A stretch of DNA of 16,397 nucleotides. It comes from an uncultured Verrucomicrobiota bacterium. GTDB taxonomy: Bacteria > Verrucomicrobiota > Verrucomicrobiia > Palsa-1439. A program made the translations under genes and the position numbers. Below the pieces are notes generated by a model that was given only the letters and a program-made list of their open reading frames with translations, was not told the origin of the DNA and did not search any database. Position 1 is the stretch's first letter, and each line of letters starts with the position of its first letter. Shown one piece after another: positions 1 to 16,397 of this stretch. The DNA lies in contig CAZEQV010000042.1 of the NCBI GenBank assembly GCA_964514435.1, positions 1 through 16,397 on the forward strand, in the 5' to 3' direction.

Positions 1-1131
1 CAGCGGATCGGGCATCTGAAACGGTTTGCTCACCCAATACATCACCACATACATGCCGCGCAGCCATGATTCCTGGCCGGTCAGGTGTTGGAGATACGAA
101 CCGATGTTCGTCAGCAACACCCCATACCCGGCCCCGAGCGCCGCCACCGGCAGCGAGAACAAACTGCCCAGCGTCACCCCCAACGCTGCCAAAAATCCCA
201 GCCCGCACCACACCACGGCCAGCGCGCGGATGAAGTTGCCGGCAAATCCGCCCTCGTAGATCAGCAACTCCAACCCGCCGTTCGGATCGAACACCATCGT
301 CAGGGGCAGCGGGTTGATGTTGGCAATTTCCAGCGTCAATGTCCCATCCGCCGCGACCATCGCGCTCGGGATGGCGACCGAATGCAGGCCGCCCGGCGCC
401 GTGTATTCTTGCCGGTACCAGCGGTCTGCCCGGTCCACGGCACCGGCCACGAAAACACAAGCGACCGGATTCTTGTCCGTCAGCGACGACGCAAACTTGT
501 ATCGCAGAATCAACGGACGGCCTGCGGACGGCCACTTCGGGAGACGAAACGTCAGCCGCGTCGCCATACCGGGCGGAACCGTGTGCGCGCGTTGGCGCAA
601 GAACTCGCGGATCGTCTCATCCGAAACCTTCTGCGCGGCGAATGCTTGTCGCGCCTGGTCGGTTACCGGGACAGATTCCGGACAAACCGCCCGACGCGCG
701 ACCAAGATTTCCTCTTGCAATTGCGGGTTGCCGCGCTCCGACCGCAGATTCCAGGACATCAATCCGTACGTCACCCCGCCGGCCACGGCAAGCAGCAGGG
801 CGTTGAGCGTCATCAACCCGAGCCATTTGCCGAGCCAAAGCTCGCACGGACGCACCGGCTTGGTGACGATGAGCTGGATTTGCCGGTCCTGCACTTCCGT
901 CGCCACAGCCGCGCAACCGGCCCAGAGCGTGGAGACCGAGAGAATGATCGTGACCGCTCCGAGCGTGTACCGCAACAGCACCTGCACCCGGCTGACCAAC
1001 GTGCCGTCATCCTTGATCGTCAGCGGCAACGCCACGACCGCCACCAGCAACAAACCCAGCAACACCACGACCACGCGCGACCGCACCGCGTTGCGCACCG
1101 CGATCCCGGCAATGGCGAAAACACTGCTCAT
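1..1131 (-). CDS. ABC-2 family transporter permease, with a large extracytoplasmic loop. It is 3'-truncated by the window edge; the ATG is at 1131-1129.
   Basis: Manual reverse-complement translation from 1131 gives MSSVFAIAGIAVRNAVRSRVVVVLLGLLLVAVVALPLTIKDDGTLVSRVQVLLRYTLGAVTIILSVSTLWAGCAAVATEVQDRQIQLIVTKPVRPCELW... and the frame stays open for 377 codons to position 1. This is the typical ABC-2 permease N-terminus and E-x-Q...KP motif, and it is paralogous to the 9432-10376 product. It lies directly downstream of an ABC ATPase. It is missing from the ORF track only because it has no stop inside the window. Confidence 0.8.
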   Translation of the reverse strand, partial: MSSVFAIAGIAVRNAVRSRVVVVLLGLLLVAVVALPLTIKDDGTLVSRVQVLLRYTLGAVTIILSVSTLWAGCAAVATEVQDRQIQLIVTKPVRPCELWLGKWLGLMTLNALLLAVAGGVTYGLMSWNLRSERGNPQLQEEILVARRAVCPESVPVTDQARQAFAAQKVSDETIREFLRQRAHTVPPGMATRLTFRLPKWPSAGRPLILRYKFASSLTDKNPVACVFVAGAVDRADRWYRQEYTAPGGLHSVAIPSAMVAADGTLTLEIANINPLPLTMVFDPNGGLELLIYEGGFAGNFIRALAVVWCGLGFLAALGVTLGSLFSLPVAALGAGYGVLLTNIGSYLQHLTGQESWLRGMYVVMYWVSKPFQMPDPL

Positions 1132-1199
1132 TGCGATGCCGGCTCTTGTAGGGCGCGCATCCCCGTCGTTTGGGGTGCGGGCCGCGCGTTCGAGCCAAC

Positions 1200-1231
1200 G
1201 GCGGGCAGCCTAAACGACAGGCGTGCCCGCC
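1200..1231 (-). other. GC-rich hairpin in the 137-bp spacer between the ABC ATPase stop and the permease start
   Basis: ggcgggca (1200-1207) and tgcccgcc (1224-1231) are perfect reverse complements around a 16-nt loop. No T-run follows, so it is not a canonical intrinsic terminator. It could be an attenuator or an mRNA processing/stability element. Confidence 0.3.
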
Positions 1232-1268
1232 CTACAATCATGCGGTTGCGATTCGCCCAGTTCATTGC

Positions 1269-2216
1269 CTACTTTGGCGGTTCGACGAGCTGCTGCAACT
1301 TTTCGTCGGCGGTCAGATACTGCGCGACACCCGTGGCGGGGCCGACGCCGCTGGCTTCAGTCGTGGTTTGCCGGGCTTGGGCGACGATGTCGAGGAAGAA
1401 CGCCTCCAAATCGCGCCGGGGATGTTCCAGCGTCGGTTCGCTGCCGAGTTCCGCGCGAGCCGCCGCGAGGATACGCTGCAGCGACTCCGCCGGCAACTCC
1501 GGCAACGCCAGCCGGTATTGCGACTTCTGTTCGAGCAACTCGTTGATCGTGCCCTGCGCCTGAATCTTGCCGTTGTAAAGAATCGCCACCCGGTCGCACA
1601 CGTCCTCCACATCGGCAAGCAGATGCGATGACAGTATCACCGTCTTGCCGCGCGCCGCGAGCGCCTTGATCAAGTCCTTCACCTGCCGGCAACCGATGGG
1701 GTCGAGGCCGGAGGTCGGCTCGTCGAGGATGACGAGGTCCGGATCGTTGATGAGTGCCTGCGCGAGGCCGATGCGGCGCGCCATACCTTTGGAAAATTCG
1801 CCGACTTGCCGGCTGTGCGCGTGGCGGAGGCCGATCATATCGAGCAACTGCGCCGTGCGCTCCCGGCGTTCGCCGGCCGGCAAGTCGAACAACATCCCGT
1901 AAAACGTCAGCGTCTCCCGCGAAGTCAGATACGGATAACTGTAGGTTTCTTCCGGCAAGTAACCGATGCGTTTCTTGGTCTGGACATCGCGCGGCGAACG
2001 GCCGAGCACGCGCAGTTGGCCGCGGGTCGGATGCAACAGCCCGAGGATCATCTTGATCGTGGTGCTCTTGCCGGACCCGTTCGGGCCGAGCAACCCGAAG
2101 ACCTCACCGGCGCGCACTTCAAAAGAAACGTCGTTGACCGCCCGGACTTTCGGCCGCCGCCAAAAATCGGTGAAGACTTTGGTGAGATGCGCCGCTTCGA
2201 TGATCGGATCATTCAT
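1269..2216 (-). CDS. ABC transporter ATP-binding protein (ABC-2 type exporter ATPase)
   Basis: Walker A GPNGSGKST, signature FSKGMARR, Walker B LVILDEPTSGLD and H-loop SSHLL are all present. The true ATG at 2216-2214 (MNDPIIEAAHL) is preferred over the TTG at 2231. This start overlaps the upstream ParE stop by 8 nt. Confidence 0.92.
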   Translation of the reverse strand: MNDPIIEAAHLTKVFTDFWRRPKVRAVNDVSFEVRAGEVFGLLGPNGSGKSTTIKMILGLLHPTRGQLRVLGRSPRDVQTKKRIGYLPEETYSYPYLTSRETLTFYGMLFDLPAGERRERTAQLLDMIGLRHAHSRQVGEFSKGMARRIGLAQALINDPDLVILDEPTSGLDPIGCRQVKDLIKALAARGKTVILSSHLLADVEDVCDRVAILYNGKIQAQGTINELLEQKSQYRLALPELPAESLQRILAAARAELGSEPTLEHPRRDLEAFFLDIVAQARQTTTEASGVGPATGVAQYLTADEKLQQLVEPPK

Positions 2217-2511
2217 CCAGTCGCTCCTCAATTGTGGCAGGTTCCCGCGCCAGATGGAGAATGGCTTTCACAACGATGCGCTCTTGATGAAGCTGGTAAT
2301 AGACACCGTAGGGAAAGGTGCGCAACAAAACACGCCGATGCACGGCATCCACTTGCGGAACCGACTCGGGGAATGCTGCCACCTGCCGCAATGCCTCGTC
2401 CAATGCCTCCAAAAAACGCAATTCCAAACCCACTCCTTGTCGCGCATACCACTGACACCCGTTCCGAATATCCTGCTCCGCGTTTGAGCGGATCACGATG
2501 CGCCGGCTCAT
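2209..2511 (-). CDS. Type II toxin-antitoxin system ParE/RelE family toxin
   Basis: The 100-aa product MSRRIVIRSNAEQDIRNGCQWYAR...FPYGVYYQLHQERIVVKAILHLAREP has the ParE-like fold signature. The internal ATG at 2511-2509 was verified. Its start overlaps the antitoxin stop as ATGA. Confidence 0.8.
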   Translation of the reverse strand: MSRRIVIRSNAEQDIRNGCQWYARQGVGLELRFLEALDEALRQVAAFPESVPQVDAVHRRVLLRTFPYGVYYQLHQERIVVKAILHLAREPATIEERLDE

Positions 2512-2725
2512 AGCTGCCGGCGGATCCGGTCCCTGACGACCTCCCACGGTTCGCCCGCTTCGGGATTCTTCAGAAACTCCTGATGCCGCTCCGCGAGGAT
2601 GCGCCGATGCCATTCGGGGACGGGAATCTCATCCGCATGCGCGGCCACGTCCGACCAGAGTTGGTCAATCAACTGCAACTTGTCGGCGACCGACAGCCTT
2701 TCCACTTCCGGGATCATGAGTTTGC

Positions 2726-2729
<4 letters not shown>
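2508..2729 (-). CDS. Putative addiction-module antitoxin (small helical 'addiction module component' family, pairs with ParE/RelE)
   Basis: The 73-aa acidic product is MSKLMIPEVERLSVADKLQLIDQLWSDVAAHADEIPVPEWHRRILAERHQEFLKNPEAGEPWEV. It sits immediately upstream of the toxin and overlaps it. Its ATG at 2729-2727 overlaps the TGA stop of the P-type ATPase. Confidence 0.72.
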
Positions 2730-4643
<1,914 letters not shown>

Positions 4644-4657
<14 letters not shown>

Positions 4658-5159
4658 AGGCGGCGGAAGAGTGGATGGTTGGATGAGTGGAAGGATGGAT
4701 GGGGGAAAGGGTGGAAGATTGAGGGACTTCGTAGGCGGCATTGGATTCGCGGACGATGAAACTTTCGTTCCAATCACCCTCTTCCAGTTTGTGCTGGAGT
4801 GATTCGATGAGCCTCTTGAGACCATTCTCCATCGTATAGGCAATGGCATCGCATTTTTCGAATTGGTCCGGGGTGATCTGGTTGCTGCGGCGATAGGCGT
4901 GGAGGCCGGAAACGGTTTCGCCGGCGGAACCGAGCGCAATGTTGAGGTGCTGGAGATATTCTTTCAAGGTGCGCCGGCAGTAGCCTTCCGCGATGTTGCG
5001 ATGGATGGAATCGGCAGCGGCCATCTGGTTGGCGGCGATGCGTCGTAATTCGTAGGGAAACGAGCGGAAGATGTCGCAGGTGAGGACGTAGTATTCAATC
5101 GCATCCTGCCAAACAACAAGTTGCCGGTATCCACGATTGATGTTCCGTCGGGGACTCAT
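4644..5159 (-). CDS. Four helix bundle protein (Avd / 23S rRNA-intervening-sequence protein family), copy A. Its C-terminal tail is encoded by the repeat array.
   Basis: The core YRQLVVWQDAIEYYVLTCDIFRSFPYELRRIAANQMAAADSIHRNIAEGYCRRTLKEYLQHLNIALGSAGETVSGL is typical of this family (NIAEG...K.F...L..A.GS..E). The ATG at 5159-5157 was verified (MSPRRNINRG). The last ~30 codons (LSPIHPSTHPTIHSS) are read from the GGATGG array. The stop at 4644 lies 14 nt inside the ATPase start. Confidence 0.75.
4666..4726. repeat. Degenerate GGATGG/GGAAGG heptamer-like tandem array; the downstream (3') arm of the inverted-repeat pair around four-helix gene A
   Basis: Plus strand reads gaagagtggatggttggatgagtggaaggatggatgggggaaagggtggaagattgaggga. 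This is the reverse complement of the array at 5160-5246. Confidence 0.75.
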
Positions 5160-5246
5160 CCACCCTTCCATCCTTCCATCCATCGTTTCCTCCATTATTC
5201 CATCCCTCCCATCTCCCACCTGTCCATCCTTCCATTCTTCCCTCAC
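5160..5246. repeat. CCATCC/CCTTCC heptamer-like tandem array; the upstream arm of the inverted-repeat pair around four-helix gene A
   Basis: Plus strand reads cacccttccatccttccatccatcgtttcctccattattccatccctcccatctcccacctgtccatccttccattcttccctcactcc. It spans exactly from the HflK-like stop (5243-5245) to the four-helix A ATG (5159). Confidence 0.75.
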
Positions 5247-6256
5247 TCCGCCCCTCCGATCGGTTTCGGTTCTGGTGTGAGCAGCAGCCGCAGTTCTTGC
5301 TGGCCGTGCTCGTTTCGGTGGATGAGGAACTTCTGGTCCACGTTGCTGAGCGTGCGGCGGAGCGTGTCTTGGAGCAGCGTCCGCGCGATGATGTCGGGGT
5401 TTTTCTGGTATTGCTCGTAAACTTTGGTGAAGTAATCCGCGCTTGCGCCAACCTCGGCCACGACGCGGCGTTTGTAGGCTTCGCCTTCGGCGATAAGCCG
5501 GGCGGCTTCGCCTTGCGCTTCGTTCAACGTGCGCGTGGCGAGCGCGCGCGCCGCGCTGATCTTGCCGCTGCGTTCCTGCTCCGCCTCGATGACCGCGCTG
5601 AACGCGGCGGCGACTTGCCGGGGCGGCAACAGGGCGAGCACGTCCACACGCTCAATCCGCACCCCAAGCCCCAGCGCATCCACCCGGCGGCGCAACTCAC
5701 CATCCACCGCGTCGCGCAACGCCTCGATCTCGGTCCGCAACGCTTGATCCACGGGGAACCGCGCCGTGCATTTGACGATGGCGTGGTCAAGCTCGCGCTG
5801 GAGAATGGCGGACGGGTCTCTCAGCCGGAAACTATACGTTTCCAAATCCACGACCGTGTAACGGACGGCCCATTTGGCGTGGATCAGGTTGGCGTCGCCG
5901 GTCAGGGTGTAACCATCGGCACCGGGCTGCAACGTCGCGGCGCCCGAGTTCTCACGAGGCATGAACGTGCCGGTTTCCACGGCTTGCACCCGCTCGGTCG
6001 GGATGCGGACGATTTCCGCGACCGGCTTGGGCCACGTCCAATGCAGGCCGGGACCTTTCAACCGGTCCGCACCCATGCCGGCAATCTTGCCGAACACGAG
6101 AACGTAGGCGCGTTCGTGTTGGCCGACGATGAAGACGCCGGAGAACAGGTACGCGACCACGACGCCGACCATCACCCAGCGTAACGCGCGGAAACTCGTC
6201 GTCAGCGCGCCGGTGAGGGCGGCTTGGCCGGTATCGTTGTGTGTGGTCTGAGTCAT
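5243..6256 (-). CDS. SPFH/Band-7 family protein, HflK-like
   Basis: An N-terminal TM segment (WVMVGVVVAYLFSGVFIV) is followed by an SPFH domain (ERAYVLVFGKIAG...GLHWTWP) and a coiled-coil region (AEQERSGKISAARALA...AEGEAYKRRVVAEVGA). The ATG at 6256-6254 overlaps the upstream TAA by 1 nt. Confidence 0.75.
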   Translation of the reverse strand: MTQTTHNDTGQAALTGALTTSFRALRWVMVGVVVAYLFSGVFIVGQHERAYVLVFGKIAGMGADRLKGPGLHWTWPKPVAEIVRIPTERVQAVETGTFMPRENSGAATLQPGADGYTLTGDANLIHAKWAVRYTVVDLETYSFRLRDPSAILQRELDHAIVKCTARFPVDQALRTEIEALRDAVDGELRRRVDALGLGVRIERVDVLALLPPRQVAAAFSAVIEAEQERSGKISAARALATRTLNEAQGEAARLIAEGEAYKRRVVAEVGASADYFTKVYEQYQKNPDIIARTLLQDTLRRTLSNVDQKFLIHRNEHGQQELRLLLTPEPKPIGGAE

Positions 6257-7149
6257 TATTTTTTTGGGAGCGCCTTGTCGCCTTGGAGCAGGTCGAACGG
6301 TTCGGTTTCGCTGCTCAACACGACGGTGGATTTGGTCTTCAACGTCAATTCGAGGACTTCCAATTTCCGGAGGAACATCGCCAGCTCGGGGTTCTTCTCG
6401 AACACCTGATACGATTCCGCCGCCTTCGCATCGCCCTCGGCGCGGATGCCTTTGGCCTCGGCTTCCGCTCTGGCGAGGAGTTGATTGCGGGTGCTGTCGG
6501 CTTCGGCGCGCAACTTGATCGCTTCCCCTTCGCCCTCGGACCGGTAACGCTCGGCAATCTCCTCGCGTTCGGCGCGCATCCGGGCGAACACCTTTTCCGT
6601 GATGGATTCCGGCAACCCAATTTTGCGGACGCCGAGGAACTGCACCTCGACGCCATACCGGCTCACCGCCTCCGGTTGGACTGCCGCCAGCATCTGCTGT
6701 TCGATGGCCTCGAACTGCACGGCGGCGGCGTTGGTGTTGATCAAGCCGGCAAAGGGAAACTGGCCGAGCACGGCGTTTTTCTGACTGCGCAGCAGGCCGT
6801 CGAGATTGCGCTCGGCTTGTTCGACCGTGCCGACGCGTTCGAGAAATTGAATCGGCTGCTGAATCCGCCAGCCGGCATAGACGGCGACGAGGATGTTCTT
6901 GCCGTCGCGGGTCAAAGTTTCTTCAAACGCCCCTTCGAGCGTATGCGTCCGGTTATCGAACCGGTAAATCCGTTGCACCGGCCACGGCCAGCGCGTGTAC
7001 AGCCCGGCCGCGGTGAGTTCGCGCACCGGCTTGCCGAATGTGGTGACAACGACGGCCTCGCCTTCGCGCACCGTGAACAGCACTTGGAGCAGCACAAACA
7101 TCACGGCCACCAGCAGGCCGACGGTTAAAAGCAACGTGTTTCGTTTCAT
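6256..7149 (-). CDS. SPFH/Band-7 family protein, HflC-like
   Basis: MKRNTLLLTVGLLVAVMFVLLQVLFTVREGEAVVVTTFGKPV...RMRAEREEIAERYRSEGEGEAIKLRAEAD parallels the E. coli HflC architecture. A GGAGG sequence sits 7 nt upstream of the ATG 7149-7147. Confidence 0.75.
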   Translation of the reverse strand: MKRNTLLLTVGLLVAVMFVLLQVLFTVREGEAVVVTTFGKPVRELTAAGLYTRWPWPVQRIYRFDNRTHTLEGAFEETLTRDGKNILVAVYAGWRIQQPIQFLERVGTVEQAERNLDGLLRSQKNAVLGQFPFAGLINTNAAAVQFEAIEQQMLAAVQPEAVSRYGVEVQFLGVRKIGLPESITEKVFARMRAEREEIAERYRSEGEGEAIKLRAEADSTRNQLLARAEAEAKGIRAEGDAKAAESYQVFEKNPELAMFLRKLEVLELTLKTKSTVVLSSETEPFDLLQGDKALPKK

Positions 7150-7165
7150 CGGATAACCTCCGTGG

Positions 7166-7229
7166 AAATGACGAATGACGAATGACCAATGACGAAAGAA
7201 TGACGAGGGCGGAAATGACGAATGGATGG
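7166..7229. repeat. AATGACG heptamer tandem array; the downstream arm of the inverted-repeat pair around four-helix gene B
   Basis: gaaatgacgaatgacgaatgaccaatgacgaaagaatgacgagggcggaaatgacgaatggatgg. It is the reverse complement of the array at 7585-7633. It ends in ggatgg, the unit of the element-A arrays. Confidence 0.8.
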
Positions 7230-7231
7230 CA

Positions 7232-7630
7232 TCAGTCGGCGCTCCTTCCGTTGCGCATGATCGCGGCGAAGATCAGATGCAATTCTTTGGCTTCTTGCCA
7301 GAGTTTGCGCGCGGTTTCTTTGTGGGATGGTTCGGCGGTGGCAATCATACGGAGCCAGTGTTTCGTTTCGCGCGCCTCGCGTTTGCAGATGCTGATTTTA
7401 TGCAGAAAATCTTTCTTCGAGTGTGCGTCATCCGCTTCCACGTAGTTGGCCCCGACGCTGGTTCCCGACCGCACTAACTGACTCACCAATGGTAGCGTAA
7501 CCGGCGTGCTAGGCACGCTCCTGCAAAAACCAATGATTGCCTCGCCAAAAACAGCCGTGCGTTCTTCGAGGTCAAATTTCGGCTTCGTCATTGGACATTC
7601 TTTCGTCATTCGGATTTCGTCATTCGTCAT
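7232..7630 (-). CDS. Four helix bundle protein (Avd / 23S rRNA-intervening-sequence protein family), copy B
   Basis: FDLEERTAVFGEAIIGFCRSVPSTPVTLPLVSQLVRSGTSVGANYVEADDAHSKKDFLHKISICKREARETKHWLRMI are family motifs. Three in-frame ATGs (7630, 7609, 7591) are all created by AATGACG repeat units. The ATG at 7630 overlaps the upstream TGA as ATGA, and the likely functional start is 7591 (MTKPKF). Confidence 0.8.
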   Translation of the reverse strand: MTNDEIRMTKECPMTKPKFDLEERTAVFGEAIIGFCRSVPSTPVTLPLVSQLVRSGTSVGANYVEADDAHSKKDFLHKISICKREARETKHWLRMIATAEPSHKETARKLWQEAKELHLIFAAIMRNGRSAD

Positions 7631-7633
7631 TTC
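7585..7633. repeat. CGTCATT heptamer tandem array; the upstream arm of the inverted-repeat pair around four-helix gene B
   Basis: tcgtcattggacattctttcgtcattcggatttcgtcattcgtcatttc. The TGA stop of the upstream SPFH-fusion gene (7629-7627) is itself the first TGA of an AATGACG unit. Confidence 0.8.
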
Positions 7634-9432
7634 TTCGCACCCAGATCGAACAACTCGGGGCGCAGTTTCTCTTCAAAGTTCAGTTGATAGACTTCATTCG
7701 ACGCCGAGGCCGGCACGATAAACTTCCGCGTATCGGTCAACGCCCGCGCCACCGTGTCGAGATACAGGCTGGTGCGGAAAACTTGCGGCGATTTCTTGGC
7801 GGTCTCGGCTTGGATGAGAAACCGCTTGGCCTCGGCGGCGGAAATCTCCGCGCGCTGGGTCCGGTAAGCGGTCGCTTCAAGATTCGCCTTCGACGCCTCG
7901 GCGCCGGCCAGCGTCACGGTCTTGCCGGCTTGGGCGCGGGCGGCGAGCACGGTGGCTTCCTTTTGTTCGAGCGCACCGATGACGGATTGAAACGCCTCGG
8001 CGACTTGCGTCGGCGGATGCACGCCTTGGAGGCCCACGAACACGATGTGAACGCCGAGTTGCCGGCGGTCGGCTTCGGCTTGGATGCGTTGGCGGAGCGA
8101 CTCGGCGATGCGGGCTTGGCCGGGACCCATGATCTCAAACAGGTCGTGCGTGGCGGCTTCGAACGTGAGGCTCCGGTAAGCGATTTGCTCGATCAGGCGA
8201 CCGGCATCGGCGTTGTGGTACGCGAACGCCATCACGTTGGTGATTTGATATTCGACCGGGATATTGAAAGCGACGAGGTTGACCGGCACGCTGCCCTCGC
8301 CGACGCGCGGGGCGGCGACGAGAAATTGGTCTTCGCCTTCGGCGTGCGGGATATTCCACTGAATGACGGCTGGCTCGACGCCGGTGCTTTGGGGTTGGCC
8401 GATGCGAAAATTGAGGACGCGCTTGGCTGGGAAGCGTTGCACGACCTCGAACGGCCACGGGGCTTTCAGGTGAAACCCGCTGTCGAGGTGCGTGACCGGC
8501 TTGCCGAAGCGTTCGAGGATACCGCGTTCGTCGGGGCCGAGGAACACGAGGCAGGAAAGCAGATAGAGCGCGACGATCTGGAAGATGACCAGCGGCAACA
8601 ACGCGCCTTCGAGGAACCGGAACAACCACGTCTCGGAGACTTTGAAGCCGAATTGATAATCGAGCGCCCCGGCGACGTTGCGCGCCCAAGCGCCGGGGGC
8701 GATGAGCAGCTCGCCCAGCCGACTTTCATACGACCGGCAAGGTTCGCCGCGTCGGGGCCGGTAAAGTTCGGCGATGAAGTTGAGGAGGTTTTCCGCCGCC
8801 AAAACCACGAGGAAGCCGGTGAGGATGACGGCCGCCCAACGGTCCGCGGCCGGGAATCCAGCCTCGCCGGCCAACGTTGCCGCACCGGCCATCAACGACG
8901 CGATGCACGCCACGCCCAACGCGATACCGGCCCCGCGCAGCAGTCTTCCCAGTCCGAGCAGATACCGGCTGAGCAGGAACATGGTGAATGCCTGTCCGCC
9001 CAACGCCGCCAACGTCATCAGGCGGTGAGCCGGTGGGGTGGCCGGCAAGTTCAGATGCCGGTAGAGCCACCAAGTCACGGCGGCCAAACCCATGGCCAAT
9101 AGAAGGGCGATGGCGGGGACGAAGAACCGCTCGAATTGTTGCCGCGTGCGGGCGACGGTGAACAGTTCGGGCGCGGTTTCCCGGTCGAAGATCGAAGCGC
9201 TGGTTCGTTCGCGTTCCAGCAAGGCGGCTTCTTGTTTTTCTTCTTCGGCGCGGCGGGCGAGGCGTTCACGGATGAGAACCAGCAAGGACACGGCCAATGC
9301 CAGAGCGGGATAAGCGAGCAACGCCGGCAAGACACGGAGATGCGTCGCGCGGGCGAGCACGGCGTCCACGACCAGCCACGCCACGGCCAGCAGCGCCGCC
9401 AGCAGGGCGATTCGTTCGTTGCGTTTGTCCAT
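7627..9432 (-). CDS. Polytopic membrane protein fused to a C-terminal SPFH/Band-7 (HflK-like) domain
   Basis: Start taken at the verified ATG 9432-9430 (MDKRNERIALLAALLAVAWLV), which overlaps the upstream TGA by 1 nt. About 6-7 predicted TM helices in the first ~330 aa are followed by an SPFH domain (PDERGILERFGKPVTHLDSGFHLKAPWPFEVVQ...). A coiled-coil Ala/Glu-rich tail (ARAQAGKTVTLAGAEASKANLEATAYRTQRAEISAAEAKRF) ends the protein. Confidence 0.7.
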   Translation of the reverse strand: MDKRNERIALLAALLAVAWLVVDAVLARATHLRVLPALLAYPALALAVSLLVLIRERLARRAEEEKQEAALLERERTSASIFDRETAPELFTVARTRQQFERFFVPAIALLLAMGLAAVTWWLYRHLNLPATPPAHRLMTLAALGGQAFTMFLLSRYLLGLGRLLRGAGIALGVACIASLMAGAATLAGEAGFPAADRWAAVILTGFLVVLAAENLLNFIAELYRPRRGEPCRSYESRLGELLIAPGAWARNVAGALDYQFGFKVSETWLFRFLEGALLPLVIFQIVALYLLSCLVFLGPDERGILERFGKPVTHLDSGFHLKAPWPFEVVQRFPAKRVLNFRIGQPQSTGVEPAVIQWNIPHAEGEDQFLVAAPRVGEGSVPVNLVAFNIPVEYQITNVMAFAYHNADAGRLIEQIAYRSLTFEAATHDLFEIMGPGQARIAESLRQRIQAEADRRQLGVHIVFVGLQGVHPPTQVAEAFQSVIGALEQKEATVLAARAQAGKTVTLAGAEASKANLEATAYRTQRAEISAAEAKRFLIQAETAKKSPQVFRTSLYLDTVARALTDTRKFIVPASASNEVYQLNFEEKLRPELFDLGAKK

Positions 9433-10376
9433 CAGGCTTTGGTCTCGACGTTGCGGAACAGGAGCATGCCCAAACTCAGCACCCCAAGCAAATAGAACAT
9501 AGCATAGCCCGTGACTTGCCGGACATACGCCCATGGCACGGTCCCCTCGCCCGCGAGCGCGTCCGCCGTCCAAAAATGCTGCCAGTTCGGCAGGAGATTA
9601 TAGAAGAACGCGGCGAGGATGTTCGTTGGCGCATGTCGTCCGAGGAGGTAATCGGTGATCAATCCGGCCAGAAAGACGACGGTGCAAATAGCCAGGGTGG
9701 GCACGAGGTCAAGCCGGCTTGTCAGCGCCAAGGCGATTCCCGCCAACACGATGGTCGCCAGCGAAACGAGCGCCGATGAAGGCAGGACACGCCAAGAAAA
9801 ACCTTCGCGACCGGTGGCCAGCCACAACATTATGAAAATTAGGGGAATGAGCAGAACGAGCGCGGTGGAGACGAAATGCCAACGCGTGAGAATATTCAGT
9901 GCCGCCGCGACACCCAACGCAACGGCAATCGCCGTGATTGTTCCACCGGCGACCATCCAATCCACCTGATAGGCCTCGTGGCTGGCTTGGGAACTGAGCA
10001 ACGTCCCAAGTGCGATGACCGCGTCGAAGAGACTGAGCACCAAGACCACGCCGGCAAACTTGGCGAGAAAATACAGTTCACGACTGATGGGCTTCACCAA
10101 GACCACCGCCAAAGTGCCTCTTTGGATTTCCTTCCCCAGGGCGAAGCTGGCCGTGTAACCAGCCAGCACCAGACCGGCGACGAAATGCAACGCCAGCGCG
10201 CTGTCTTGGACGACCTGTTGGGCCTGCCCCATGGTGTGCATCAACAAGGCCGGCATCAGGGCTATGAACACCAAGCAGCTCACTGTCAACAGCAGCAGAA
10301 ATGGTTGCCGGACCGCTTCAAACAGAGTTAACGTCGCAACCGCTGCGAATCGCTTGAGAGAGTGGTGAAAGCTCAA
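9432..10376 (-). CDS. ABC-2 family transporter permease (paralog of the 1-1131 product)
   Basis: MSFHHSLKRFAAVATLTLFEAVRQPFLLLLTVSCLVFIAL...KEIQRGTLAVVLVKPISRELYFLAKFAG, with about 6 TM segments. The start codon at 10376 is TTG (no ATG nearby), so the exact start is uncertain. It is the first gene of the minus-strand operon. Confidence 0.65.
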   Translation of the reverse strand: MSFHHSLKRFAAVATLTLFEAVRQPFLLLLTVSCLVFIALMPALLMHTMGQAQQVVQDSALALHFVAGLVLAGYTASFALGKEIQRGTLAVVLVKPISRELYFLAKFAGVVLVLSLFDAVIALGTLLSSQASHEAYQVDWMVAGGTITAIAVALGVAAALNILTRWHFVSTALVLLIPLIFIMLWLATGREGFSWRVLPSSALVSLATIVLAGIALALTSRLDLVPTLAICTVVFLAGLITDYLLGRHAPTNILAAFFYNLLPNWQHFWTADALAGEGTVPWAYVRQVTGYAMFYLLGVLSLGMLLFRNVETKA

Positions 10377-10692
10377 ATGTTCTTAACACATATGACACGA
10401 CCCCATGTTAGGCAAGTGGATACCCCGACCGGTTGCGACTGTAATGTCTGCGCCAATGAACAACGATTGAACGGAATGGCATGAACTCAACTTCATTCTT
10501 GAAAAACAACTTCAAGTGTAGCGGCTGGAGAGTGTCACTCTTGAAACGTTTTGAGCCGGCATGAGTGTGTGTCGCCATTACGGAACTCTAATGTCGTAAT
10601 TCAGGAGTATCCCTGCGGGAATCGTTCCATAATAATAAAACCCAATCACGGCTGTTGGTCATCCTGACCAGCGTCGATAGTTTCAAGCGTAC
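10377..10692. promoter_or_regulatory. Divergent intergenic promoter/operator region between the minus-strand operon and the plus-strand membrane-protein gene
   Basis: This is the only substantial non-coding stretch and is visibly AT-richer (cataataataaaaccc). It contains the inverted repeat CTTGAAaaacaacTTCAAG (10498-10516), a second tcttgaaa copy 42 bp later with the palindrome aaacgttt (10538-10552), and a small ccctgcggg hairpin near 10610. Confidence 0.4.
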
Positions 10693-12705
10693 ATGGATCA
10701 AGCGACAAATCAAATACTGTCGGCTCGGCGCGTGGCGGCGGCGGTGACGGTGGCCTTGCTCGGAAGCGCCATTGTCTGGGTGGCGGTGCCCTATAATAAT
10801 TTCTGGCTCAAGAATACCTACTTGTCCGACACGTTTCTTCCAGAGATTGCCATCGCGTTTCTATTGCTGCTGGTGTTGGTGGTGAATCCGTTGTTGCATG
10901 TGCTCCGGCCGGCTTGGGTGCTGCAACGGCGGCAGGTGGCGTTGATTGCGAGCCTGATGTTGTTTGCGGCGGTGCTGCCCAGTAACGGCTTGATGCGGAT
11001 GTTTCCCCGATTCGTTGCGCAATCGAATCAGGGCATGAATCAGAATCCGACGACGGCGCGCATCGCCGCGGAGGCTGGGTTCCGGCAGGCCTTGTTCCCC
11101 GATCCGTTGCCGGCGCGCGGGGCGGATGGGAGCGTGCAGACGCATGAGACGCCGGTCTCGGACCAGTTTCTGGATGAATTGGCCGAAGGCGCGACGATTC
11201 CGTGGTCGGCGTGGATCTGGCCCATGACGGCGTGGGGGCTGTTGATCGTCGCGCTGTGGACGATGATGATTGGGCTGGGGGGTATGGTGTATCCGCAGTG
11301 GCGGGACCGGGAACGGTTGCCGTTTCCGCTGTTGAACGTCTATCACGCGCTCATCGGCGATCCCGACAACCAGTCAAAAGGTTTGTTGCCGTCGGTATTC
11401 CGAAGCCGGGGCTTTTGGATTGCGGCCATCGTGGTGTTCATCATCCACGCCACGCGCGGGTTGAGCGCGTTCACCGGGGCGTTCCCCGAATTTCCTTTGT
11501 CGTGGAACCTGGAGGCATATTTCACGGACAGCATTTTTCGGCACACCACCATTGCGCTGAAGCGGCAATCCATCTTTTTCGCGCTGATCGGCGTGGCGTA
11601 TTTCATTCCGAACCGGTATGCGATTTCAGTGTGGGGGTGGGTGGTGGGGTATGCGTTGTATGTGATGGCGGGCCGGGCGTTCGTGCCGGCGTTCAATGAG
11701 GGCCAGGCGGCCGACCAGTCGTTTGGCGCGTTGCTGGCGATTGCGGCGTGGGTGTTGTGGTTGGGGCGGACGCATTGGGCGCAGGTCGGCCGCGCGATGC
11801 TCGGCCGGGCCGGTGAGGGAGCGGAAAGCCGCCGGGATGGGCTGGCGGGGTGGATGTTTGCTGGCGGGTGTGCCGGGATCGTTTGTTGGTTGTATTGGGC
11901 GGGGTGTTCGTTGTGGTGGAGTCTGCTGGCCATGTTCGGCTGCGCGGTGGTGACGTTGTTGATGGCGCGCATCATCGCGGAGACGGGGATACCGGTGTTG
12001 TGGGTCGGTCAGATGAGCGTGGGCCAACTGACCGCGCTGTTTCCGCTCTCGTGGCAATCGCCCGTGATTCTCTATTTCACGGGGGTATTTCACGTTTTGT
12101 TGACGCGGGCGTCGGCGATGAGCGCGGCGGTGATCACCACGCTCTCGTTGGGGATGGATCGAAAGGCGTCCGCCGCGAATCATTCCCGGCTGCTCTTGGC
12201 CGGGTTGGTGGTGTTGGTGCTGGGGTTCGTGGTGTGCGGCGCGGTGCATCTGAACATGGGCTACTACAGCGCGGACATCACGACGGAGGCCAAAACGGAC
12301 GCGAGCCGGCTCAACGATTGGGTGCGGGCGGATCGGGCGACCTTCGATTTCTTCACGATCAAGCGATGGCATCAAGGAGTTGGGGCGACGATTGCCGGCG
12401 GGTTGTTGTGGGTGTGTTCGCGTTTTCCATCCTGGCCGATACATCCGGTGGGGATTATTTTTTGCCAGCTCAGCATCGGCAATCTCATCTGGTTCAGCAT
12501 TTTTGCGGGTTGGCTGCTGAAGACGGCCATTACCGGGCTGTTTGGGGGCGGGGCGTACCGGAAAGCGCGGCCGGTTTTCTTGGGATTGATCTTTGGTGAA
12601 TTGTTGGCGGTCATCGTCTGGACGTTGGTGCCGGTGATCATTATTTGGGTGACCGGCGCGGACCCGGCCACGGTGCCGCGCTATATGTTGATGCAATATC
12701 CGTAA
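10693..12705 (+). CDS. Large polytopic integral membrane protein of unknown function (670 aa, more than 12 predicted TM helices)
   Basis: ATG at 10693 and TAA at 12703-12705. Hydrophobic helices run throughout (VALLGSAIVWVAV, IAIAFLLLLVLVV, WGLLIVALWTMMIGLGG, FWIAAIVVFIIHA, AISVWGWVVGYALYVMAG and others). No recognisable catalytic motifs. Trp/Gly-rich. Confidence 0.7.
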   Translation: MDQATNQILSARRVAAAVTVALLGSAIVWVAVPYNNFWLKNTYLSDTFLPEIAIAFLLLLVLVVNPLLHVLRPAWVLQRRQVALIASLMLFAAVLPSNGLMRMFPRFVAQSNQGMNQNPTTARIAAEAGFRQALFPDPLPARGADGSVQTHETPVSDQFLDELAEGATIPWSAWIWPMTAWGLLIVALWTMMIGLGGMVYPQWRDRERLPFPLLNVYHALIGDPDNQSKGLLPSVFRSRGFWIAAIVVFIIHATRGLSAFTGAFPEFPLSWNLEAYFTDSIFRHTTIALKRQSIFFALIGVAYFIPNRYAISVWGWVVGYALYVMAGRAFVPAFNEGQAADQSFGALLAIAAWVLWLGRTHWAQVGRAMLGRAGEGAESRRDGLAGWMFAGGCAGIVCWLYWAGCSLWWSLLAMFGCAVVTLLMARIIAETGIPVLWVGQMSVGQLTALFPLSWQSPVILYFTGVFHVLLTRASAMSAAVITTLSLGMDRKASAANHSRLLLAGLVVLVLGFVVCGAVHLNMGYYSADITTEAKTDASRLNDWVRADRATFDFFTIKRWHQGVGATIAGGLLWVCSRFPSWPIHPVGIIFCQLSIGNLIWFSIFAGWLLKTAITGLFGGGAYRKARPVFLGLIFGELLAVIVWTLVPVIIIWVTGADPATVPRYMLMQYP

Positions 12706-12737
12706 TGCGGAATGCGGAAATCGGAATGCGGAATCAC
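12704..12737. repeat. Solo AATGCGG heptamer tandem array at a gene junction
   Basis: aatgcggaatgcggaaatcggaatgcggaatcac lies immediately after the TAA of the upstream gene. It supplies both candidate ATGs (12705, 12726) of the downstream gene. It is the same unit type as the arrays flanking four-helix gene B, but has no inverted partner and no enclosed gene. Confidence 0.7.
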
Positions 12738-15700
12738 AATACGACAACCTGGGGAAAGGCGCGGGGCGGCGAGCTTCGACCGCATTCTGCTTTTCGCATT
12801 GCGCCTTTGGCGGTCTGGCTGGTTTTGTGGTGCGGTGTTGCGGCGGCGTCCGATGACGATTTTGCGGCGCGCGTGCGGGCGGACACGGAATGGTTGAGCG
12901 GCTACGAGACACGTCAAGTGGGGACCCCAGCGCACCGGCGCGTGCAGGATGATTTGTTGGCCAAGCTTCGGGCGATCCCGGGCGCGCGGGTCTGGACGGA
13001 TGAGTTTCCGGTCGTCGTGCCGGTCCACACGGAGACGTATCTGGAGGTGGCCGGGCGGCGGGAAACGATCTATCCGCTGTGGCCGGATGTGGCGCGGTTG
13101 AATACGACGCCCCCGGACGGGATTAGCGGGAAGTTGATTTATGTGGGGGATGGGGACTACGGGCGATTGCCGGCGCGGAGTCTGCGGGGCAACATCGCCG
13201 TGATGGAGATGTCGGCCTGCGCGGATTACCCGCGAGTGTTCGACTTTGGCGCGTCGGCGGTGATTTTTCTGGAATCAGCGAAGGTCGGCGAGGTGATCAC
13301 CTCGCAACAATCGCTGTACAAGCCCCGGTACTATGTAAAGGCCGGGGCGTTGGCGGACGCGTTGCGCGCCGGCCCGGTTTCGGCCGGCAAGATTGTGTGT
13401 CGGGGCCGGTGGGAGACGGTCATGGCGCGCAACATCTATGCGGCCGTGAACGCGTCCGGTGCGAAAGGCGAGGCGCCGTACGCGGTCGTCGCGCCGTATG
13501 ATTCAATGAGCCGGGTGGTGGGGGTGGCACCGGGCGCTGACAGCGCGTTGGACTGCGCGATTGTGTTGAATCTGTTGCGGGACGTGGCCGGTCAGGCGCC
13601 GCGGCCGTTGCTGTTCGGGTTTGTGGACGCCTACCATATTAATCAACTGGGGATACGGCGGATGTCGGCGATGTTGACGAGCACGCCGAAGTGCCAAACC
13701 CGCGAGGCCTACCGGAAGATCGAACAGAAGGAACTCGACGCCTACCGGGAAGCGGCGAAGGAACTGGCGAAGTTTGACACCGTCGAGGCGGGACTGGCCG
13801 GGTTGAATAACCGGTACGCGGCGCCGCAGTTGCGCCGCTTGTTCAAGGACGCGGTGGGCACGGATTTGCTCCGGCTGCGCGAGCTTCAGGGAGAATTGCG
13901 CCTGGCGTCGCTGCGGATTGAGACGGAGAACTCACCGGCGATGCGGGTGCAGATGCTGGGGGCGTTGGAGAACAGCGCCGCCTGGCTGCTGGCGCATGTG
14001 GCGGGCGAGTTGACGACCGAGCAGCGCGCGGAGTTGGTGGCGGCCCGGCAGTTTGTGGCCGGACAAGATGTGGCGTCCGAGCCTTGGCAGGAGCTGGCCG
14101 GGGCGCGGGAACGGGCGAAGGGTTTGTTGGCGATTTGCACGGGCCCGTTGCGGGCGCGGAATCGGGTGTTGGAGGCGGTGTTGACGGGTGACCGGGAGGT
14201 ACCGGCGGAGTTTCTGCCGGTGGCGCGGACGATCTGGCAGGATGTGGCCGAGCGGGTGCGGGAACAGGTGCGGGAACAGGAGCAGCGGGCCGCGTTTTTC
14301 GAGCCGTTGGACCGCTTGCGGCGTGAAGTCGCGGAGCATTTTCAATTGCACACCGATGGCGTGGACCGGGCCGTGTGCAAGTTTGTCGTGGGCGTTGACC
14401 TGTCCGACTGCGGCGTGTTGGTGGGGCCGGGCATGCTGTGCGGTTACAACCGCATCGAACCGACGGACAAAGACTTGATGCGCGTGTTGAAGCGGGTGGT
14501 GAAACGCGGAGAAATCTGGCCGGCCCATTCGCCGGAGCGCAAGGTGGTCAATCTCGGCGCGATCGAAGGCCGGGTGGGTGGCAGCGGCGACATCGGGCAG
14601 CGGGCGTTGATCACGTCGGCGGCGCGGAGCTTCTTGTTGCCGGGCGTGACGTGGGTGACCGACGACGCGTTGCGCCAGCGGATGGATTCGCCGATGGACC
14701 GGTTTGACCAAGTGGATTGGAGCCGGATTGATCCGCAGTTGCCGGCCACGCGGCGTTTTCTGGATTGGTTGTTCACGTCCAAGGAGTTTGTGCCGGTCGC
14801 GAAGTCCGCGGAGGAAACCGCGGCGGCGTGGCGGCACGGGATGGGGCGCGTGGTCAATGTGTCGGCCGGCGAGACGGTGCCGCGCGTGCCGCAGCGCGGG
14901 TTCTTGGTGACGTTGATTGCCTATGGAGCGAACCGCGATGGCATTCGGCGGCAGGAGTTCGCGTGGACGGGGTACGACGGATCGTTTCGGATTCCGCTGA
15001 TGTGCGGCGAGATCAACGCCAACGTGCTAAACGGCAAAAACTTCAACATGGAGGCATTCAAACTCGATGAGTCGGGCGCGATTGTCGAGTCGTTGACCAA
15101 GACCGAGTCGCTCGTGGCGACGCGGTTGGCGACGACGTTCAGCGTCAGCACCAAGCCCGGCGAGCAACTGCCGCGCGCGGTGACGTTTGAATGCGCGGAG
15201 TTGAACGGGCCGGCATTCTTCGACGCGCGGTTCATGGAGCCGCTGACGCAGGCGATGTTGCTGGACGCGGGGCGCGGCGGGCCGCCGAAGAAGTCGTTGT
15301 TCAAAATGGACAGCACCGGCCAGATGTGGGGGCTGGTTCCGCCGGGAATGCGCTGGCAACTGGTGGTGCGCGCCGGCGCGGCGGGCGTGCGCATGGCGTT
15401 GCTCAACGCGGTGCCGGACGGCCGGCAGCGGGGACTGGATCTGCGTTCCACGTTCCAGCGCGGTTTCGAGGTGGAGGAACGGTTGCCGTCCCTCCCGGCG
15501 CACCTGGCGGCGCAAGACATCTATGTGTTGAACGATTGGCGGCTGACGGATTTCCGCGCGGCCGGGATTCGCAGCGAGAAGATTGACCAGATTCGCGCCG
15601 GCACGAAGAGGGAGTTGGAACTGGCCGCGGCGGCGCAGGCGGCGGATGACGCGGCCCGGTTGCAGCGCGCGGCGAACCGGGCGTTGGCCAGCGAGATCCG

Positions 15701-16397
15701 GGCGTACCGGGCGGTGTCGGATACCGGGCAGGACATCGCGCGCGGGGCGATTTTTCTGATGTTGATGCTCGTGCCGTTCAGCGTGGCGATGGAACGGTTG
15801 CTGTTTGCGTTCGCGCGGATCGGTTCGCAAATCGGGGGCGCGATCGGGATTTTTGCCGGGATGACGGTGTTGTTGTGGAGTTTTCATCCGTCGTTTCGGA
15901 TCAGCGCGCAGCCGTTGGTGATCGTCATGGCGTTCACGATTTTGGCGATGAGCGTGGCGGTGATCAGCATGGTGTTGTCGCGGTTCCGCGGGTCGGTCCG
16001 GGAGTTTCAGAGCGCGCTGGCCGAAGGCGCCGGGGCGAAGATGGGCCGGGGCGGGTTGCTCGGTAGCGCGGTGTTCCTGGGCATCGCCAACATGCGCAAA
16101 CGCCGGGTGCGGACGGCGTTGACCAGCGCCACGATCGTGTTGGTGACGTTTGCGCTGCTGTGTTTTTCCTCGGCGAGCAGTTATGTGGACAAGAAGGAGT
16201 TTCGACTGGAGAACGTGACCGCCGAGCGCGCGTCGGTGTTGGTGCGGCGGCCGTCGTTTGGGCCGATTACGTGGCCGGCAGCGGCGGGGATTGGCAATTT
16301 GTTGGGGGCGTCCGATGTGGTGGTGGGCGTCCGAGCGTGGTTCGTGCCCGGGCTGGGCGACACGGAGCAGACCATGAAGGCCGGAAACATGGAGATC
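12705..16397 (+). CDS. Giant secreted/membrane protein, 3'-truncated (more than 1230 aa). It has a signal peptide, a PA domain, a degenerate M28-peptidase-like domain split by a long helical insert, and MacB/FtsX-type permease TM modules.
   Basis: The frame is open from ATG 12705 (1-nt overlap with the upstream TAA) to the window end, verified by manual translation. The signal peptide reads RIAPLAVWLVLWCGVAAAS|DDDF. The PA-like segment is GKLIYVGDGDYGRLPARSLRGNIAVMEMSACADYPRVFDFGASAVIFLES. The M28-like motifs have catalytic residues replaced (VVAPYDSMSRVVGVAPGADSALDCAIVLNLL, FGFVDAYHINQLG, VNLGAIEG). A C-terminal membrane bundle is present (IFLMLMLVPFSVAMERLLFAFARIGSQIGGAIGIFAGMTVLLW). A second MacB-like TM1 reads GIANMRKRRVRTALTSATIVLVTFALL. 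Confidence 0.75.
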   Translation, partial: MRNAEIGMRNHNTTTWGKARGGELRPHSAFRIAPLAVWLVLWCGVAAASDDDFAARVRADTEWLSGYETRQVGTPAHRRVQDDLLAKLRAIPGARVWTDEFPVVVPVHTETYLEVAGRRETIYPLWPDVARLNTTPPDGISGKLIYVGDGDYGRLPARSLRGNIAVMEMSACADYPRVFDFGASAVIFLESAKVGEVITSQQSLYKPRYYVKAGALADALRAGPVSAGKIVCRGRWETVMARNIYAAVNASGAKGEAPYAVVAPYDSMSRVVGVAPGADSALDCAIVLNLLRDVAGQAPRPLLFGFVDAYHINQLGIRRMSAMLTSTPKCQTREAYRKIEQKELDAYREAAKELAKFDTVEAGLAGLNNRYAAPQLRRLFKDAVGTDLLRLRELQGELRLASLRIETENSPAMRVQMLGALENSAAWLLAHVAGELTTEQRAELVAARQFVAGQDVASEPWQELAGARERAKGLLAICTGPLRARNRVLEAVLTGDREVPAEFLPVARTIWQDVAERVREQVREQEQRAAFFEPLDRLRREVAEHFQLHTDGVDRAVCKFVVGVDLSDCGVLVGPGMLCGYNRIEPTDKDLMRVLKRVVKRGEIWPAHSPERKVVNLGAIEGRVGGSGDIGQRALITSAARSFLLPGVTWVTDDALRQRMDSPMDRFDQVDWSRIDPQLPATRRFLDWLFTSKEFVPVAKSAEETAAAWRHGMGRVVNVSAGETVPRVPQRGFLVTLIAYGANRDGIRRQEFAWTGYDGSFRIPLMCGEINANVLNGKNFNMEAFKLDESGAIVESLTKTESLVATRLATTFSVSTKPGEQLPRAVTFECAELNGPAFFDARFMEPLTQAMLLDAGRGGPPKKSLFKMDSTGQMWGLVPPGMRWQLVVRAGAAGVRMALLNAVPDGRQRGLDLRSTFQRGFEVEERLPSLPAHLAAQDIYVLNDWRLTDFRAAGIRSEKIDQIRAGTKRELELAAAAQAADDAARLQRAANRALASEIRAYRAVSDTGQDIARGAIFLMLMLVPFSVAMERLLFAFARIGSQIGGAIGIFAGMTVLLWSFHPSFRISAQPLVIVMAFTILAMSVAVISMVLSRFRGSVREFQSALAEGAGAKMGRGGLLGSAVFLGIANMRKRRVRTALTSATIVLVTFALLCFSSASSYVDKKEFRLENVTAERASVLVRRPSFGPITWPAAAGIGNLLGASDVVVGVRAWFVPGLGDTEQTMKAGNMEI

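Follow-up and report, generated by a model that had tools for sequence, protein, structure and literature searches.

A tandem-heptamer hairpin at a stop/start junction of an uncultured Verrucomicrobiota bacterium, probably a gene-less copy of a dispersed palindromic element whose long form carries a PF05635 gene

We analyzed a stretch of 16,397 nucleotides (nt) from an uncultured Verrucomicrobiota bacterium (GenBank assembly GCA_964514435.1, contig CAZEQV010000042.1, positions 1 to 16,397 of the forward strand; hereafter the window), in which a short array of tandem heptamers lies at the junction between a membrane protein gene and a very large open reading frame (ORF). The junction comprises the following features, with the arms and the loop named after the hairpin described below.

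10693-12705, forward strand: upstream gene, encoding a 670-aa DUF6785+DUF6784 membrane protein (Pfam PF20581, 1.5e-70; PF20580, 1.6e-18)
12704-12731, forward strand: 5' arm, units AATGCGG AATGCGG AAATCGG AATGCGG
12732-12779, forward strand: loop of 48 nt, beginning with a decayed unit AATCACA
12780-12807, forward strand: 3' arm, a degenerate inverted array CCGCATT CTGCTTT TCGCATT GCGCCTT
12705-16397, forward strand: 5' part of a giant ORF (more than 1231 aa) that runs off the window, with the translated N-terminus MRNAEIGMRNHNTTTWGKARGGELRPHSAFRIAPLAVWLVLWCGVAAA followed by SDDD

Direct reading places AATGCGG at 12704-12710, 12711-12717 and 12725-12731, AAATCGG at 12718-12724 and AATCACA at 12732-12738, that is, three perfect units, one variant and one decayed fifth unit. 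Tandem Repeats Finder reported the segment 12704-12734 as a period-7 repeat (4.4 copies, 83% matches, score 48). A first-pass annotation, made from the sequence alone, had described four copies of AATGCGG at this site; the array, its position and the quoted translation were correct, but not all four units are perfect. The 14-mer AATGCGGAATGCGG, allowing up to two mismatches, has 4 matches in the window vs 0.41 expected, a count reached in none of 200 shuffles. The array lies between the TAA of the upstream gene and the downstream signal peptide, as had been described, and the two overlap: the TAA occupies 12703-12705, its final AA are the first two array bases, and it shares a base with the ATG at 12705 (TAATG), so that the first unit begins within the stop codon. 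The ATGs of the 5' arm at 12705 and 12726 are in frame with the giant ORF and that at 12712 is out of frame. Two other assemblies of this organism (L001 and L002) match the window exactly at the junction, and an assembly artefact was therefore rejected.

The out-of-frame ATG of the second unit opens a separate ORF of 61 codons (12712-12897); in the third unit, AAATCGG, the ATG expected for the remaining frame is missing. A middle unit of the form AAxTCGG recurs in two relatives described below (L007 and L009) and in many metagenome arrays.

The array had been reported as having no inverted partner. A repeat search found one immediately downstream: the segments 12704-12731 and 12780-12807, 28 nt each and 48 nt apart, are complementary at 23 of 28 positions (82%) and would form a 28-bp stem. 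Such pairing was reached in 0 of 5000 shuffles of the downstream 300 nt, where the maximum was 19/28. Chance origin of the array and of its arms is thus rejected by both sets of shuffles (0/200 for the 14-mer and 0/5000 for the inverted pairing). The next-best match in the window to the complement of the 5' arm is an arm of cassette B, one of two PF05635 gene cassettes introduced below (21/28), and no other is comparable. RNA of 12695-12820 folds with -50 kcal/mol (z = -2.74) with the arms paired, and TTT in the 3' arm stands opposite the AAA of the variant unit AAATCGG. The loop holds no four-helix gene, as stated earlier: it has no detectable similarity to PF05635 genes or to other loops (the MAFFT alignment was unconvincing and blastn-short gave chance matches only), and with no PF05635/TIGR02436 ORF between its arms this copy belongs to a gene-less class. 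Rfam gave no matches in the window at the gathering threshold and none at E<=1 in 12600-12900, and no terminator-like site (GC-rich stem followed by a U-tract) was found in 12400-13000.

The array is probably one side, the 5' arm, of a dispersed palindromic element that carries a PF05635 gene in its loop when full-length; the copy in the window would be gene-less and partly decayed. In kind, the element is a palindrome similar to an intervening sequence (IVS) or to a miniature inverted-repeat transposable element (MITE), with arms made of heptamer arrays and embedded in an operon junction. The reading draws on the anatomy and statistics of the two arms, on family membership as given by the arms and their order, on absence from the closest relative, on continuity of the reading frame, and on a conserved start geometry.

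Two gene-bearing elements of comparable design are present in the window itself.

7165-7633, reverse strand: cassette B, with a PF05635/TIGR02436 four-helix gene at 7232-7630 and inverted AATGACG arrays on both sides
4665-5241, reverse strand: cassette A, with a PF05635/TIGR02436 gene starting at 5159 and inverted GGATGGA-type arrays, between Band-7 and P-type ATPase genes

The arms of cassette B are 38 nt long, 89% complementary and 393 nt apart, and those of cassette A are 48 nt long, 71% complementary and 441 nt apart. The unit AATGCGG is one base away from the AATGACG unit of cassette B, in agreement with their earlier assignment to one unit family. The junction geometry is also the same, since the TGA of the Band-7 gene upstream of cassette B overlaps an arm ATG (ATGA) as the TAA does at 12703 (TAATG). 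Both cassettes are inserted among the genes of the Band-7/P-type ATPase operon, and the ORF of cassette A continues across the 3' arm and into the start of the ATPase gene.

We scanned metagenome contigs of the Joint Genome Institute (JGI) for AATGCGGAANNCGGAATGCGG and found at least 120 contigs with a match; 128 arrays among the matches listed were examined for an inverted partner (at least 17/21 paired; null maximum 15/21), and all array counts below refer to arrays listed there. A partner lies less than 200 nt downstream in 44 cases and 223-650 nt downstream in another 10; two arrays have an upstream partner and 12 are at contig ends. With 54 downstream vs 2 upstream partners, the order 5'-[AATGCGG]n-loop-[CCGCATT]n-3' is essentially fixed, and it is the order found in the window copy and in related genomes of the Planctomycetes-Verrucomicrobia-Chlamydiae (PVC) group. 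No gene is present in loops of 10-100 nt, and a PF05635 four-helix gene is present in those of ~380-450 nt. The cassette-size loops of L119, L127, L193 and L197 encode PF05635 proteins (E 1e-14 to 1e-25), which begin with MRNAECGMRN and end with PHSAFRIPH, arm-encoded peptides as in the window. The long forms encode no cargo other than PF05635 and no known transposase. We define this AATGNCG-armed family by cassette B, the cassettes of L010 (see below), L119, L127, L193 and L197, and ~44 mini hairpins.

The protein from L127 has thousands of close homologues, and an arm-encoded tail such as ..PHSAFRIPH is present in 107 of the best 120 (regular expression match). The named sources among these 120 are Gemmatimonadetes metagenome-assembled genomes (MAGs), and these source labels suggest that the arm type is not confined to the PVC MAGs in which we found it (L007, L009, L010). 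Many of the same 120 homologues (P0084-P0203) are annotated with a start MRNAE..., so the repeat arms are already embedded in public protein annotations.

One partial form apparently links cassettes to mini hairpins: in L084 (925-1215), both arms are intact around a 223-nt loop that retains only the C-terminal half of a PF05635 ORF (profile positions 50-103). Several mini hairpins have ~46-nt loops whose first bases are GAAGTGGGAGGTCGT-like and in this resemble cassette ORFs at their 5' end. The first-pass annotation had raised the possibility that the array is what remains of a lost cassette, meaning that a full PF05635 cassette once stood here and that deletion of its gene left the two arms with 48 nt in between. 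As a general process this is plausible, given L084 and the occurrence, at one junction in relatives, of gene-less hairpins in L007 and L009 vs a cassette in L010 whose ORF is frameshifted (see below). For this particular copy we regard decay in place as possible but rather doubtful. Its loop is unlike any PF05635 gene or other loop, and no relative has a cassette at this exact junction. Since gene-less copies outnumber gene-bearing ones by about 4 to 1, the copy could also have inserted already without a gene, and from such an insertion it is indistinguishable.

The first-pass annotation had proposed a test for enrichment of such arrays at gene junctions, and the metagenome arrays show a bias of this kind. 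For 30 of 107 arrays, the end of an ORF (minimum 100 codons) falls between -12 and +3 relative to the array start, vs 3.0% of random positions, and six of these 30 have stops of the form T-AATGCGG, as in the window. In 35 of 107 arrays (7.7% at random), an ORF of the same minimum length begins with an ATG of the arm, and an ORF end is combined with an ATG-opened ORF in 10 arrays. The arms also show partial compensation of their variants. AACGCGG is mirrored by CCGCGTT in 6 of 6 cases, 79% of cells are paired vs 29-47% in slid controls, and the number of double-change cells is 69 vs 52 +/- 7 in shuffles, a value reached by 4 of 500 shuffles.

The strong bias to ORF ends and starts, the compensated arm variants, and the occupation of several junctions of the same operon in L007 and L009 would also fit a selected, non-mobile regulatory RNA hairpin, an operon punctuation mark (for coupling, RNase III processing or mRNA stability) that evolved at each junction and is recognized by a conserved factor. 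Conservation of arms while loops diverge points in the same direction: L093 (1730-1810) and L187 (589-670) represent one locus in two samples, with near-identical arms and flanks and 16-nt loops that mostly differ. We nevertheless find this explanation unlikely. Identical arms of 21-28 nt occur in unrelated contexts, including positions next to tRNA genes and apparently a second phylum (judged only by the Gemmatimonadetes labels on homologues of the L127 ORF), which copying explains more easily. Moreover, many AATTCGG units are uncompensated (mirrored in 2 of 13), and the closest relative manages without the element. Regarding tRNA genes, AATGCGG hairpins in L087 (1116-1250) and L133 (1588-1720) abut apparent tRNA genes, with a GGAATCGAACC-type T-arm sequence on the opposite strand, so the hairpins are not restricted to protein-gene junctions. 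Individual hairpins, such as that of L099, contain both G·U and A·C mismatches.

For comparison of orthologous junctions, we collected 83 homologues of the DUF6785 protein (best 85% identity) and fetched from them 77 GTDB loci, all from MAGs and most labelled as PVC-group lineages. In the closest relative, L004 (85%, identical to L003), the junction lacks the array; it starts with TAAcATGCGGATT and reads TAAcATGCGGATTCTTCTC, encoding MRILLIILALCVTGYADD. The alignment gives the window ~114 nt extra relative to L004, and in-frame removal of 12711-12797 (87 nt) joins ATGCGG to ATTGCG... and yields MRIAPLAVWLVLWCGVAAAS (MRIAPLAVW...), a signal peptide like that of L004. In L007 (69%), the junction reads TAGtATGCGCAACGCGGACGGTGGAATGGGCAAGCAT, encoding MRNADGGMGKH..., which is a decayed array with 22 of 33 nt identical to the window (counted by eye). 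The sequences of these two relatives at the junction fold no better than shuffles (z = -0.06 for L004 and +0.54 for L007). A cassette at this exact junction, which the first-pass annotation proposed to look for, was found in no relative examined. The polarity could be either loss of an ancient element in L004 or independent insertions in the lineages of the window and L007.

At a second junction of the same operon (junction 2), ~7 kb downstream between a gene ending in KSVNVVLPL and its stop and a gene beginning with ...LAWAGW, the relatives show the whole series from empty site through gene-less hairpin to full cassette. Ordinary spacers without heptamer arrays are found in six relatives (L014, L013, L006, L015, L017 and L019), gene-less AATGCGG hairpins in L007 (z = -3.8) and L009 (z = -5.4), and a full cassette in L010 (19149-19700), whose arms are AATGCCG+AATGCGG and whose PF05635 ORF is frameshifted. 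In L008, the arrays at this junction are non-complementary. The 3' arm is translated here as ...PHCALRTPHSALAWAGW, the same arrangement as in the window. Several junctions of the operon are occupied in L007 and L009, and the 21-mer AATGCGGAAATCGGAATGCGG of the window 5' arm is found identical at two junctions of L009. A search of the 77 GTDB loci (1.2 Mb) with hidden Markov models detected PF05635 genes only in the two window cassettes and in L010, and the period-7 arrays in these operons number 45, so that gene-less arrays far outnumber cassettes. In L011 (9693-9900), a different kind of repeat occupies junction 2, with a ~48-nt unit GGGAGGGCCGGGTTCAACCCCGGCCGCCGTGTTGTAAGTTCGGTGTTC repeated ~4 times and a GGCCGGG/CCCGGCC hairpin inside each unit.

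These comparisons also bear on the other proposal of the first-pass annotation, in which the heptamer arrays pre-exist as landing pads for cassettes and the window array is an empty target site. The L010 arms consist of outer AATGCCG/CGGCATT and inner AATGCGG/CCGCATT layers, mirrored on both sides; this could represent covarying arms or a nested insertion into the loop of an older hairpin, the latter in favor of a landing pad. The unoccupied junctions, however, are free of arrays (L004 at the first junction and the six relatives at junction 2), and the window array already has an inverted partner of its own. Because orthologous junctions without the element carry no array, the arrays arrive with the element, and we consider a pre-existing landing pad the most improbable of the explanations weighed here.

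The position 3' of DUF6785 family genes has been occupied by arrays repeatedly. In three distant homologues, heptamer arrays begin ~10-30 nt from the stop codon.

L051, 5286-5337: AATGACG array after the DUF6785 stop
L053, 2859-2967: GACAGAG array of 15.6 units after the DUF6785 stop
L057, 10256-10332: TTGGAGA and AACATTC units after the DUF6785 stop

The frame from ATG 12705 reads MRNAEIGMRNHN (over a longer segment, MRNAEIGMRNHNTTTWGKARGGELRPHSAFRIAPLAVWLVLWCGVAAASDDD); no stop interrupts the 1231 codons up to the end of the window. The loop is translated as HNTTTWGKARGGELR, and the 3' arm as PHSAFRIAP, running into the hydrophobic region (h-region) of the signal peptide. The giant protein, a secreted or membrane protein, has no Pfam or NCBIfam match. 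Among the N-termini of 16 homologues compared, all have a signal peptide followed by DDxxFxxRVxADTxWL, from where the mature part is conserved; the segment before the mature part is 17 to ~60 aa long in the homologues, and the 48 aa of the window are within this range. The only in-frame ATGs 5' of the h-region are 12705 and 12726, and the sole alternative start, TTG 12806, would leave no n-region. For a normal signal peptide to be made, translation must thus begin no later than the fourth arm unit and include the loop and the 3' arm. The start is conserved at the junction, as the ATG follows 1 nt past the stop in L004, L007, L013 and L021 alike, and the JGI gene call in L001 begins the downstream gene at the overlapping ATG (the equivalent of 12705). 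Together with the MRNADGGM peptide of L007, these features indirectly support the earlier claim that the array is translated, which we consider likely.

A heptamer repeat within the 5' coding end of a giant exported protein also suggests a local simple-sequence repeat acting as a contingency (phase-variation) locus of a surface-protein gene. Gain or loss of units would change which arm ATG is in frame, and L004 has a single ATGCGGA at the position. We regard this as very improbable. The window, L001 and L002, three assemblies of different samples, have the same copy number, and only three units are perfect. In addition, the arm sequence, including the AAATCGG variant, occurs in other genomes, with the arm in at least 120 contigs, and slippage is not expected to give a paired inverted array.

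Under the preferred reading of a gene-less palindromic element, the element would affect the junction in several ways. The first AA of the element would complete the upstream TAA, an arm ATG (12705 or 12726) would become the start codon of the giant gene, and the arms and loop would be read through as ~30 extra N-terminal codons (MRNAEIGMRN...RPHSAFRI) before the signal-peptide core. By direct reading, (AATGCGG)n and (CCGCATT)n contain no stop codon in any frame and each AATGCGG unit has an ATG, which is why an element of this type would be tolerated in a translationally coupled operon. On the mRNA, the arms may pair into an imperfect stem of ~28 bp that buries both start codons. Ribosomes terminating at TAATG would then melt the stem, which would tie production of the giant protein to ribosomes that have translated the upstream gene, and an unmelted stem would be a candidate RNase III site by analogy with the stems of rRNA IVSs.

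Several points weigh against the reading of the array as an element arm. About half of the arrays (60 of 128) have no detectable partner, so a hairpin is not obligatory for the repeat family. Translation of the arms is likewise not general, because some arrays lie in a 5' untranslated region before a normal Shine-Dalgarno sequence and ATG, as in L089 upstream of purA; in L151, the start codon is within the loop and the 3' arm is translated. The 3' arm of the window copy is degenerate, with one of four units perfect, and since the loop is unique, family membership is assigned by the arms. No consistent target-site duplication was seen around ~12 well-delimited hairpins, and no transposase or other mobility gene at the hairpins (both by eye). 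The decayed array of L007 may indicate that the element is old at this junction and kept by selection or homogenization, or that it inserted twice. Finally, we infer spread by copying or mobility from the distribution of copies, and folding in vivo, coupling and RNase III cleavage from the arrangement at the junction, the cleavage by analogy with the Coxiella IVS.

The 23S rRNA IVS of Coxiella burnetii is 428-444 nt long, with terminal inverted repeats that form a 28-bp stem and an S23p/PF05635 ORF in the loop; its distribution is sporadic, it is thought to be horizontally transferred, and RNase III cleaves it within the stem (PMC4990558). Cassettes A and B and those of L119, L127, L193 and L197 have their size, their stem-plus-ORF layout and the protein family in common with the 23S rRNA IVSs (C. 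burnetii, Leptospira), whereas the window element shares only the ~28-bp stem and lacks the ORF. The IVSs are located in helix 9, 25 or 45 of 23S rRNA and have non-repetitive arms; the window element is at an mRNA stop/start junction, its arms are tandem heptamers, and Rfam found no rRNA in the window. Gene-less copies that share terminal inverted repeats with gene-bearing ones and outnumber them (44 vs 10), together with the partial deletion in L084, are points in common with MITEs, but the long-form cargo here is not a known transposase and no target-site duplication was seen.

Other dispersed repeats resemble the window array in part. Repetitive extragenic palindromic sequences (REPs) are mobilized by REP-associated tyrosine transposases (RAYTs); no RAYT was seen here, with no search aimed at RAYT association made. 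REPs and bacterial interspersed mosaic elements resemble the window element in being short palindromes (20-40 bp), imperfect and dispersed, that occur at the ends of genes or between cistrons. Roles in mRNA stabilization or termination are proposed for REPs, most of which have a GTAG or CGTC tetranucleotide at one end (PMC3733652). The window arms, in contrast, begin with AATG and end with CATT without a GTAG/CGTC head, and the copy is part of a coding sequence. In marine Beggiatoaceae, Cyanobacteria and Bacteroidetes, tandem direct repeats of the heptamer TAACTGA, mostly intergenic and in 2-6 copies, likewise stop a few nt short of start codons and in some cases extend over the preceding stop codon; their distribution also spans phyla (MacGregor 2015, PMC4679880). 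They give stop codons in each of the three frames and are almost never inverted, with a single indirect repeat in 170 sets (PMC4679880). AATGCGG, in contrast, is free of stops in all frames and contains an ATG; an inverted partner is usual, and the unit has a link to PF05635 genes. Geobacter metallireducens has 49 copies of an element of four tandem heptanucleotides (GGGACCG), which, like the window array, is multicopy, made of about four heptamers, located between and within genes, and of unknown function (PMC2700814); its unit is different, and inverted arms or a link to PF05635 are not reported there (PMC2700814). In the literature collection searched, full-text queries gave no description of the arm sequence, nor of PF05635 linked to heptamer arms.

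PF05635 proteins (‘23S rRNA intervening sequence protein’ or ‘four helix bundle protein’) are among the commonest unexplained small bacterial gene families, and to our knowledge the origin and movement of rRNA IVSs have been an open question since the 1990s. The present analysis links the family to a recognizable structure, the inverted heptamer arrays, in gene-bearing, half-deleted and gene-less states that involve orthologous operon junctions, and indicates that such elements can turn into the 5' coding end of a host gene. The AATGCGG/CCGCATT arms together with the MRNAECG and PHSAFRI peptide tails in database proteins provide a searchable signature for tracing the elements and for correcting the start and stop annotations of many ‘four helix bundle’ genes and their neighbors. 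As a tentative and broader idea, heptamer-array hairpins might represent an undescribed IVS-like class in PVC MAGs, and possibly in Gemmatimonadota (by homologue labels only), that is built for life in operons, landing on stop/start junctions, regenerating both codons and donating a peptide (MRNAECG.../...PHSAFRI). PF05635 would then be either a cargo or a processing or mobility factor, and the classical 23S rRNA IVSs a special case that landed in rRNA.

Some further arrays and one neighboring segment deserve mention. Mini hairpins of unrelated heptamers are present at other gene junctions in L009 (11348-11410, GCGTGTC/CGACACC) and L070 (20794-20869, GGGGATC/CCGACCC), so the architecture is not tied to one unit sequence. 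In L025 (7576-8172), ~430 nt are flanked by ~18 units of GAGAGTG on one side and 6 inverted CTCCACA units on the other, with a further CCAACGC array at 7772-7810. In the window, a 316-nt non-coding stretch (10377-10692) with a G+C content of ~54% vs ~62% lies 5' of the DUF6785 gene and probably represents the operon's promoter or leader.

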